A stretch of 64,000 bases of DNA, taken from the NCBI GenBank assembly GCA_965228855.1, contig CBDDIJ010000002.1, forward strand, positions 1,600,001-1,664,000. Reading direction: 5' to 3'. The notes under the pieces are model-generated. The model ran no database searches and had not been told where the DNA came from. It saw nothing but the letters and a program-made list of their open reading frames with translations. The position numbers were made by a program, and so were the translations under genes. This stretch comes from Candidatus Obscuribacterales bacterium. GTDB taxonomy: Bacteria > Cyanobacteriota > Vampirovibrionia > Obscuribacterales > Obscuribacteraceae. Positions 26,848-29,179 of the stretch are shown piece by piece. Numbering within the stretch: the stretch's first letter is position 1; every line of letters begins with the position of its first letter.

Positions 26848-28227
26848 TTAAGGTTTCAACCGGTTGATGTCGCGTGGAAACAGCGCTGTTTGCTTGATTG
26901 TGGGCAAGCCTAGAAGTTGTTTCGTTATGCGTTCCAATCCGATTGCCAGACCACCGTGCGGCGGCATGCCGTATTTGAAGCACTGCAAATACTCCGCGAA
27001 GTCCTCGGGATTCAGACCACGGCCGGCTATTGAGTTGCAGAGCTCTTCGTACTCGTGGATACGCTGCCCGCCTGTCGTCACCTCGAGTCCGCGGAACAAC
27101 AAGTCGAAGCCGCGGCTCATCTTCGGCGAATTGCCGTTCGAGAGCGGTTCCGTCAGTGGATGGGTGTAGAACGGTCGTGCTGCCAGTGGATAGTGTTTCA
27201 CGTACAGAAGTTCGCAACCGGTCTCTTTGCGGAAGTGTTCGCACAGTAATCGCTCGCCTTCTGGGTCCAGGTCGCTCTCTCCCTCCTGCTTCCAACCGAG
27301 TTTTGAAGACAAAAGTTTCAACGCTTCAGTCAGGCTGATTTGAGGAATCGTTTCAAACTCAGGAACTTCAGCTCCGTACATCGCCAACTCTTCTACACAA
27401 GTTTCTTGTACGTGTGCGAAAATATGGCGCAGCAAGCGGACCTGCATGTTGATGATGTCTTGCTCCGATTCGATAAATCCCATCTCGAAGTCGAGGCTTA
27501 TGTACTCGTTCAGGTGTCTCGAAGTGTCGTGTTCTTCAGCGCGATAAACTGCTGCTGTTTCGAACACGCGTTCATAAACGCCGACCATGATTTGCTTGTA
27601 GAACTGTGGACTCTGAGCGAGAAACGCGTTAGTTCCAAAATAGTCGAGTTTGAACAGCTGAGCACCGCCCTCGGTACCAGTCGCCACAATCTTTGGAGAA
27701 TGAATTTCAACAAAGTTTTCCTTCGTAAGAAACTCGCGGAACGCTTGTGTGATTGCCGCTTCGATTTTGAAGATTGCCTTCACCTTTGGGTTTCGAAGAG
27801 TGATCGGTCTATAGTCAAGCAGCGTTGAAAGACCGAGCGAATCCATTTTTTGTTCTTTCGATAGCTCGACCGGCGGAATTTCTTTGTTATGGGCAAGTCG
27901 TTTGAGAACCGTCGCTTGAATCTCGGAACCGCCTTCCTTGCGCCCCTGCGCAACGACTAATCCTTGAACACGCACAGGTGTTTCAAGAACTATTTCACGT
28001 GCAACTGCGACAAGCGATTCTTTTTCGACGACTACTTGGATAATTCCTGAGGCGTCGCGAACGTTCAAGAAATAGAGTTTTCCAAGGTCGCGCAGCGAGT
28101 GTACGTGCCCGGCGATATGCACGACATCACCGATTCGTCGCGTAGCTTCCTTGACGGAAATTCGCTCCTCCGTACACTCACATTCCTCACATTCACTTTC
28201 CGATTTGCTTTTCAATTCAGTACTCAT
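26848..28227 (-). CDS. aspS: Archaeal/eukaryote-type aspartyl-tRNA synthetase, probably non-discriminating (Asp/Asn)
   Basis: OB anticodon domain, EIHSPKI, AQSPQFYKQ, YRAEEHDTSRHLNEY, GGQRIH, GMPPHGGLAIGLER, LFPRD; about 460 aa, lacking the bacterial GAD insertion; GGAGG SD before ATG 28227. Confidence 0.93.
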   Translation of the reverse strand: MSTELKSKSESECEECECTEERISVKEATRRIGDVVHIAGHVHSLRDLGKLYFLNVRDASGIIQVVVEKESLVAVAREIVLETPVRVQGLVVAQGRKEGGSEIQATVLKRLAHNKEIPPVELSKEQKMDSLGLSTLLDYRPITLRNPKVKAIFKIEAAITQAFREFLTKENFVEIHSPKIVATGTEGGAQLFKLDYFGTNAFLAQSPQFYKQIMVGVYERVFETAAVYRAEEHDTSRHLNEYISLDFEMGFIESEQDIINMQVRLLRHIFAHVQETCVEELAMYGAEVPEFETIPQISLTEALKLLSSKLGWKQEGESDLDPEGERLLCEHFRKETGCELLYVKHYPLAARPFYTHPLTEPLSNGNSPKMSRGFDLLFRGLEVTTGGQRIHEYEELCNSIAGRGLNPEDFAEYLQCFKYGMPPHGGLAIGLERITKQLLGLPTIKQTALFPRDINRLKP

Positions 28228-28237
28228 AACGCCTCCA

Positions 28238-28268
28238 AACAAAAAACCGCAACTCTCAGAGTCGCGGT
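28238..28268 (-). terminator. Attenuator terminator upstream of aspS
   Basis: Minus strand CCGCGACTC-TGA-GAGTTGCGG-TTTTTTGTTT, ending immediately before the aspS SD. Confidence 0.85.
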
Positions 28269-28297
28269 CGTCGTATTTTTTGAGGTTGTTTACTTCG

Positions 28298-28375
28298 CTA
28301 ACACCACAAAACAGACGACCGCGCTGGGCGATTATCTGCGTCGTTATTATTATTGTTAGCGATGTTGAACAACAC
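28298..28375 (-). CDS. Asn/Asp-rich leader peptide, 25 aa: MLFNIANNNNNDADNRPARSSVLWC
   Basis: GTG 28375 to TAG 28298; 7 Asn and 2 Asp codons within codons 4-15; its 3' half contains the antiterminator strand. Confidence 0.8.
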   Translation of the reverse strand: MLFNIANNNNNDADNRPARSSVLWC

Positions 28376-28422
28376 GATGTTGAAACCTAATTTTCCGCGA
28401 GCCGATTGCTTGCGATTTATTG

Positions 28423-28452
28423 ATCCTACGGCCGACTTTTCGGTCGCGTCAA
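28423..28452 (-). promoter_or_regulatory. Candidate sigma70 promoter of the aspS leader
   Basis: TTGACG-N18-TAGGAT on the minus strand; predicted TSS about 40 nt before the leader start. Confidence 0.55.
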
Positions 28453-28549
28453 TGATCTGTTAACTAACCCGCCAAAGTTTTTTTAGTCTGCGCAATTCAT
28501 CTTAGACATTGAAGTAGTATAAATACAACCAAAGACGGAGCGCGCCGAG

Positions 28550-29179
28550 ATGACGCATTCAGAACCTGCTAGTCCTTGCGAGACTTTTCTCCGCAAAGTT
28601 CGAGATGTTCCGATTCCGGACGCAATCAATGCGGGGCTCGAGACCCTCGTGCAAGCCGTCGATGCTGAGCAGGGTTCGATATGTTTGATCGTTCATGATG
28701 TAATTAAGGTAGCCTACCGATTTGAGCGAGGTTCGCGTTCGACCGAGATTGATGCGGTCACCCTATCAGCGCAGAAAGCCATGCAACTGGTACTTGGGGT
28801 GATGGGAGCGCGATATGACATACCGATTTCGTTCGATAACTCGGACTCCGCGAAATTGCATTGGGCGCCGTTCTTTGAACTTTGTGGTGCGGACTATCGT
28901 TCTAACCTGATTGCACATCTTGGTTTTGGCGGAGCGTTCCTCGGAATTCTGACCGCTCAATCAAATCGTGGAGACTCGTTCTCCAGCGATCAATTAAGGC
29001 AATTCATGATGATGGCAAATGCAATTTCTTTCGCGATCCATCACGAAAGGCTTGTAGAGAAGCTCCAGGACGAAATTGCCTTTTTCGAAAGGGCGCATCC
29101 GAACTCCAGCCGGGCGGACCAAACCTGGGAAGGCTGGATCGCTGAGTCCAGGTCCATAGACGCGAACAGTGATTCGTAA
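28550..29179 (+). CDS. Stand-alone GAF-domain protein
   Basis: LETLVQAVDAEQGSICL...YRSNLIAHL...LGILTAQ...FSSDQLRQFMMMANAISFAIHHERL is a GAF-type pattern. Confidence 0.75.
   Translation: MTHSEPASPCETFLRKVRDVPIPDAINAGLETLVQAVDAEQGSICLIVHDVIKVAYRFERGSRSTEIDAVTLSAQKAMQLVLGVMGARYDIPISFDNSDSAKLHWAPFFELCGADYRSNLIAHLGFGGAFLGILTAQSNRGDSFSSDQLRQFMMMANAISFAIHHERLVEKLQDEIAFFERAHPNSSRADQTWEGWIAESRSIDANSDS

Follow-up and report, generated by a model that had tools for sequence, protein, structure and literature searches.

What governs the expression of a second aspartyl-tRNA synthetase in a cell that also encodes an asparaginyl-tRNA synthetase? In this work we have analysed a stretch of 64,000 nucleotides from a Candidatus Obscuribacterales bacterium (GenBank assembly GCA_965228855.1; hereafter the window, with positions counted from its first letter), in which the minus-strand gene aspS2 (26848–28227, ATG at 28227) codes for a 459-aa protein of the archaeal-type aspartate--tRNA(Asn) ligase family. 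The public-run contigs X2 and X4 match the whole stretch with zero differences, and those runs may represent the source sample. An initial annotation had proposed that aspS2 lies behind a leader-peptide attenuator that senses Asn and Asp. Our results point the same way: judging from sequence comparison and predicted folds, we put at roughly 85% the probability that the element is a classical ribosome-sensed transcription attenuator controlling aspS2.

Read on the minus strand, the locus begins with a sigma-70-like promoter, TTGACG-N18-TAGGAT, at 28423–28452, where the initial annotation had placed it. The pattern alone is close to chance within the window (3 matches against 1.3 expected); of the 40 orthologs, 31 have it 5΄ of the leader, and it turned up in none of 240 coding windows. 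A weak ribosome-binding site, AGGT (28385–28388), lies 9 nt 5΄ of a leader reading frame of 25 codons (28298–28375) that starts with GTG (then TTG) and ends in TAG. Its five consecutive Asn codons and the nine Asn/Asp among codons 4–15 are found as first described, and codons 7–15 (28331–28357), NNNNNDADN, are taken as the control codons. Region 2, the 5΄ strand of the antiterminator, is CGCGGTCGTC (28323–28314); it pairs without mismatch, as the initial annotation had read it, with region 3 (28272–28263), which is common to antiterminator and terminator. The intrinsic terminator hairpin with its U tract occupies 28237–28269 (an 11-pair hairpin at 28269–28245), overlaps region 3, and is followed by the aspS2 ribosome-binding site GGAGG (28232–28236), again in the order first noted. 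A predicted 1:2 protector hairpin, with an outer 9-bp stem and an inner stem, spans 28295–28362. The earlier suggestion that a 9-bp inverted repeat (28354–28362 with 28295–28303) would form the protector stood in part: the repeat makes the outer stem, and it is the inner stem (28328–28339 with 28311–28323) that would hide the antiterminator. Further upstream, between a hydrolase-like gene and the promoter, a plus-strand frame of 209 codons (28550–29179) has no match in NCBIfam; this segment is missing from the closest relative (G007) and from run X1, and looks like a recent insertion.

We propose that when Asn- and Asp-tRNA are charged the ribosome would traverse region 2 up to the stop codon; with region 2 covered, the 2:3 pairing would come too late, the 3:4 hairpin would form, and transcription would stop near 28240. 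If Asn-tRNA (mainly) or Asp-tRNA were short, the ribosome would stall within the control codons and leave region 2 free downstream to pair with the emerging region 3, the terminator would be pre-empted, and RNA polymerase would read into aspS2. The induced AspRS2, if non-discriminating, would with the GatCAB encoded elsewhere in the genome make Asn-tRNA(Asn) from aspartate, and would also add Asp-tRNA(Asp) capacity. The leader may carry two kinds of control codon because AspRS2 serves, as we infer, both tRNA-Asn and tRNA-Asp.

The arrangement is kept across the aspS2 clade. Of 36 further family members, 30 have a close aspS2 ortholog; 24 genomes from other families have none, their best matches being at most 33% identical. 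A quick tree of 106 proteins unites the aspS2 clade as one branch of 43 rows (support 100), and named records place it in the Obscuribacterales. After setting aside three of the 47 clade loci that lack upstream DNA and four duplicates, 40 loci were left for our counts, and the leader is present in all 40. A model of the leader built on them gave 19 new matches, namely two Met leaders, discussed below, and 17 directly 5΄ of aspS2, four of which duplicate earlier loci. With the 14 loci found later, the leader is known from 54 distinct loci, a good many of which are closely related. One of these (L183, G024:C18, upstream of 125954) is divergent: its Asp-dominated leader (NDDDD) has the same layout with other helix letters, and was missed by the model. 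Upstream of the leader the genes differ between loci, while the leader stays. The 63 aspS2 homologs outside the clade show at most 5 N/D per 10 codons within about 400 nt upstream and no terminator motif, and the model at E 0.01 gave no match at any of them, although many lie inside operons and absence of such leaders in those phyla is not implied.

What could the cell gain from AspRS2? Its assignment to the archaeal type, as first annotated, holds: the protein scores 535.7 bits with NF003483 (cut-off 353) and 384.3 with TIGR00458 (cut-off 368.4), and its best PDB match is the Thermus AspRS2 structure 1n9w (E 1.4e-120). Two residues, a His in the anticodon-binding domain and a Pro in the L1 loop, are what we take to be determinants of a non-discriminating AspRS. 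The first is present in the window protein (His43) as in 1n9w and 1wyd (1b8a has Trp), and the position is His in 16 of 40 orthologs and Gln in 18. The Pro of 1n9w and 1wyd (Lys in 1b8a) aligns, in a poorly aligned loop, to Glu98, and is found in 6 of 40 orthologs versus 32 of 66 other rows. The putative non-discriminating activity that the initial annotation ascribed to the enzyme is suggested by family membership; of the two residues, the His is present and the loop Pro absent. AspRS2 also bears an acidic, Cys-spaced N-terminal extension (ECEECEC; window 28227–28160), seen only in the genome carrying the window (G000) and in G007 among the loci inspected.

The genome check suggested at the outset found AsnRS (C5:585579), GatB, GatC and a gatA-like frame, and G000 encodes in addition a bacterial AspRS and GlnRS. 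Because AsnRS, GlnRS and the bacterial AspRS are all there, aspS2 is a spare second AspRS and not the sole route to Asn-tRNA. The gatCAB genes are unlinked to aspS2. Both tRNA-Asn genes of G000 begin with U1-A72, a pair that GatCAB requires according to passages of PMC4206432. No asnA match was found in G000; an asnB-like gene is present, and the need for tRNA-dependent Asn synthesis is therefore weakened. Since asnB-like genes occur in 35 of 36 family genomes, they offer no contrast that would explain the presence of aspS2. A further idea, that aspS2 compensates for a discriminating main AspRS, was dropped, since it shows no contrast: Leu occupies the His/Leu position in 29 of 29 matched genomes that lack aspS2 and in 26 of the 27 that have it; the main AspRS of G000 has Leu plus Gly as in 4wj3, a mixed signature. 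G000 also has two tRNA arrays (C3:724518–727973, about 21 genes, and C3:1529761–1530653, about 5 genes), with second copies of tRNA-Asn and tRNA-Asp. There is also a second GlnRS match (C4:35621–37153) with a long Lys/Glu-rich N-terminal extension, on a 182-kb contig and in AT-richer DNA, which is possibly foreign DNA or contamination.

A genome-wide scan for a short amino-acid-rich frame followed by a terminator and a gene gave 128 matches, mostly noise, with a single Asn/Asp match, the one 5΄ of aspS2; no N/D leader was seen 5΄ of aspS1, asnS, asnB, gatA, gatB, gatC or glnS in G000. Convincing cognate leaders with terminators, rich in His, Trp, Leu, Ile/Val, Met, tandem Tyr and tandem Phe (L115–L118, L121 and L122), precede hisG, a trpE-like and a leuA-like gene, ilvD, the gene for cystathionine gamma-synthase and those for two DAHP synthases (tandem pairs), and the Trp, first Tyr and first Phe terminators have an ACCGC/GCGGT core in common with the aspS2 terminator. 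Another scan match (L119, C2:585221, minus strand), a short repeat frame with a strong terminator 5΄ of a 431-aa and a 1010-aa gene, was not kept in the set; the 431-aa gene has no NCBIfam match, and the region is perhaps a peptide-modification cluster. Two more synthetase genes resemble aspS2 in layout. A second serS (C3:873727, plus strand) follows a leader with five Ser and a terminator, and a second thrS (C3:2640017, plus strand) follows one with five Thr in six codons and a terminator. It is the lower-scoring copies that carry the leader, and the higher-scoring SerRS and ThrRS twins (C3:2697160 and C5:745787) have none. Counting AspRS, one copy carries a leader in 3 of 3 synthetase pairs found; among the synthetases covered by two Pfam searches there was no further pair, and TrpRS is single. 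Because the second SerRS and ThrRS have cognate leaders and their twins do not, the aspS2 leader looks like one of a set controlling starvation-induced spare synthetases.

This set lends weight to another output for the same attenuator, in which AspRS2 would rescue tRNA charging under inhibition or overload of the main AspRS or AsnRS, GatCAB would be optional, and the family could be partly discriminating. An inhibitor-resistant TrpRS under a Trp leader provides a parallel. The diverged L1 loop and the lack of an N/D leader at gatA, gatB, gatC, asnS and asnB fit such a role, as do the five of 40 leaders, and the one of G024, in which Asp codons equal or outnumber Asn codons; candidate attenuators 5΄ of Streptomyces trpS2 and leuS, described in passages of PMC1262725, also go with it. 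However, 35 of 40 leaders have more Asn than Asp codons, an excess without purpose for a purely Asp-charging enzyme, and the U1-A72 of tRNA-Asn and the retention of GatCAB despite GlnRS also weigh against it. We regard a rescue role as possible and somewhat doubtful; it bears on nothing but the output and partly coincides with the reading we prefer, an attenuator that feeds an Asn-tRNA route.

Is the leader read by ribosomes? Looking upstream of the orthologous aspS genes for a conserved N/D-rich frame, as the initial annotation had recommended, we found one with start and stop in 40 of 40 loci. An in-frame start lies at most 30 codons 5΄ of the Asn/Asp run, with no stop between, in all 40, while the other two frames have one in 13 and 8; a start together with an AGG/GGA-type site is found in 28 loci in the N/D frame, versus 1 and 2 in the others. 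The stop codon falls 11–25 codons past the beginning of the run. The first 12 codons of the 40 runs hold 316 Asn/Asp versus 4 Lys/Glu codons, and in the A-rich spacer 3΄ of the leader stop the triplets number 36 and 61. AAT makes up 151 of the 221 Asn codons in the runs, versus 43% in long frames of the genome, and every leader has at least one Asp codon. The runs were selected for N/D richness, and their composition is partly circular; the start, stop and Lys/Glu results are independent of that selection. The only residue that recurs in the leader peptides is an Arg, encoded by the helix letters, and no C-terminal stalling motif of arrest peptides (SecM-like RAGP) is present in those inspected, so far as that motif is concerned.

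Additional evidence for reading by ribosomes comes from two sister families, in which the model matches leaders whose AAT/GAT run, shifted to the +1 frame, gives Met codons; the helices are similar and the genes downstream unrelated. One (L215, G116:C2:131963–132094) is a Met-rich leader with Asn/Asp in the neighbouring frame, 5΄ of a frame that codes for at least 446 aa; the other (L216, G040:C76:827–969) is also Met-rich and stands, apparently as a tandem pair, 5΄ of a small protein. These leaders show that the frame decides the specificity, and they raise, without proving it, the common descent of Met and Asn/Asp leaders.

Were the AAY/GAY run instead left untranslated, it could be a single-stranded triplet site at which an RNA-binding protein or a tRNA flips the same helices. 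In its favour, the predicted folds leave this A-rich run mostly unpaired, and in some leaders the only starts are GTG or TTG and the ribosome-binding sites are weak. Against it, start codons and the open frame follow the N/D frame only, Lys/Glu triplets are excluded from the run, and the look-alike runs of the sister families start in the +1 frame, as Met runs, before other genes. A tRNA reading of the T-box kind finds no match either: a covariance search of 28100–28700 gave no T-box at E up to 5, in agreement with the initial annotation, and none was found in 11 other loci. We therefore consider an untranslated site very unlikely and return to a translated leader.

The switch itself was explored with predicted folds. 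The 196-nt leader of the window folds more stably than 200 of 200 shuffles (z -3.6), and among the 40 orthologs the leader region reaches a z below -2 at 21 loci and a negative z at 36. In the window the 1:2, 2:3 and 3:4 helices are predicted at -26.8, -27.6 and -16.1 kcal/mol and are mutually exclusive. Across the ortholog alignment the terminator has 96.1% and the antiterminator 78.6% paired cells, with two-sided changes in 5 of 9 and 6 of 11 pairs. The number of pairs with two-sided change did not surpass the shuffles (275/500 and 68/500). The antiterminator percentage was reached by 0 of 500 shuffles, and slid partners pair at only 27–48%. The GCGG/CCGC cores of both helices are near-invariant, so that it is the flanking pairs that covary, in loci that are related to one another. 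The last control codon is mostly 13 nt from region 2 (one locus was mis-picked), region 2 mostly 20 nt from the stop, and the stop 23–38 nt from region 3. Thus the attenuator geometry first proposed has come through comparison in its reading frame, its covarying terminator and antiterminator, and its spacing. At the sequence level, every feature of the classical class is found except a clear-cut protector: 1:2 is clear in the window fold, and its outer partners vary among orthologs.

How far do the folds follow the ribosome? When a ribosome is set on Asn codon 9 in the window by blocking the bases it would cover, the predicted fold goes from terminator (1.00) to antiterminator (0.85); with one set in the same way on the stop, the full leader folds as the terminator. 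With leaders cut after region 3, the probability of 2:3 exceeds 0.5 in 35 of 40 when a ribosome is stalled, in 29 when there is none and in 18 when one stands at the stop. In L034, L036, L037 and L040 equilibrium folding gives no 2:3 core pairing, and in L015 it just reaches 0.5. The alternative folds that the initial annotation had called for thus gave a divided answer, as the window switches on stalling (terminator 0.15) and most other full leaders still favour the terminator under a stalled ribosome (median 0.99). Equilibrium folding shows the predicted switch only partly, and if the switch exists it must therefore be kinetic, a matter of timing, as in the classical attenuators.

The same hairpin might act on translation initiation, an extended 3:4 structure hiding the aspS2 ribosome-binding site with no end of transcription. 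In the window fold the bases near 28285 do pair with the beginning of GGAGG, and the T tails are weak in a few loci (L034, L045). Nevertheless, 39 of 40 loci have at least 5 T within the 8 nt that follow the terminator stem, and the ribosome-binding site is reached only past the U tract, which makes initiation control very improbable beside termination by the attenuator. Least credible of all are a Thr/Ile/Met leader translated in the +1 frame and a constitutive terminator whose repeats arose by chance, since the +1 frame, open into aspS2 in the window, has a start in only 13 of 40 loci with stops scattered from 8 to 502 codons, and the leader is kept while the upstream genes differ.

The attenuation mechanism is itself textbook, as in the trpL, hisL, leuL and thrL type (passages of PMC1183508 and PMC2659441) and in the control of pheST (cited in PMC1262725). 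The E. coli trpL, hisL, leuL, thrL and pheM attenuators have the same cognate leader frame, protector, antiterminator and terminator; here the specificity is Asn/Asp, the target is a spare archaeal-type AspRS, the host is a member of the Obscuribacterales, and region 2 falls within the leader, some 20 nt short of its stop. Likened by layout only, Streptomyces trpS2 and leuS (PMC1262725) and the predicted Rhodobacterales cysS leader uORFC-8-2 (PMC8632094) likewise place a cognate leader and a terminator 5΄ of a synthetase, trpS2 being a second copy; as far as these sources describe them, they concern other amino acids, one each, and other phyla. For Shewanella aspS, passages of PMC2659441 give a 'tRNA synthetase leader' and a terminator and mention no peptide. 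Passages of PMC4206432, citing Saad 2012 and 2013, report in Clostridium acetobutylicum an extra AspRS and GatCAB beside AsnRS under T-box control, a functional analogue; here, by contrast, the sensor would be a translated leader, and the gatCAB genes are remote from aspS2 and lack an N/D leader. The nearest structural relative by sequence is the AspRS2 of Thermus/Deinococcus (PDB 1n9w, 3kfu), which have the same gene set of two AspRS, AsnRS, GlnRS and GatCAB, the extra archaeal AspRS being non-discriminating (also PMC4206432); they differ in the loop, where Pro is replaced by Glu here, and in the asnB-like gene present here. We found no report of a leader peptide for the Thermus/Deinococcus genes. 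In Rfam, 28100–28700 had two chance matches only (E 1.9 and 3.9) and no leader family, and the aspS motif RF02930 had no match in the window and none in 9 genomes, where the positive controls gave none either. The literature searched, which covers few subscription journals, held no Asn/Asp leader attenuator, so this specificity is apparently undescribed.

Could these observations be joined? We tentatively suggest, as one possible account, that the spare Asp, Ser and Thr synthetases each sense their own charged tRNA, and that the Asn/Asp leader is a two-substrate sensor inducing tRNA-dependent asparagine synthesis, a ribosome-read counterpart of the clostridial T-box. Its ancestry is perhaps shared with the sister-family Met leaders: the AAT/GAT run and the GCGGTC/GACCGC helices are alike, and a one-base shift of the start codon may set the specificity.

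If the attenuator is real, asparagine and aspartate would join the amino acids sensed by classical attenuation, and the locus would reveal by what means, other than a T-box, a cell endowed with both routes to Asn-tRNA picks between them. At about 200 nt the device is small enough for testing in an E. coli reporter, and the pairing of leaderless with leader-controlled synthetase copies would offer a testable reason for keeping spare synthetases. Passages of PMC4833913 state that there are no reliable data on attenuation for cyanobacteria; our results would place a rich set of attenuators in their non-photosynthetic sister lineage.
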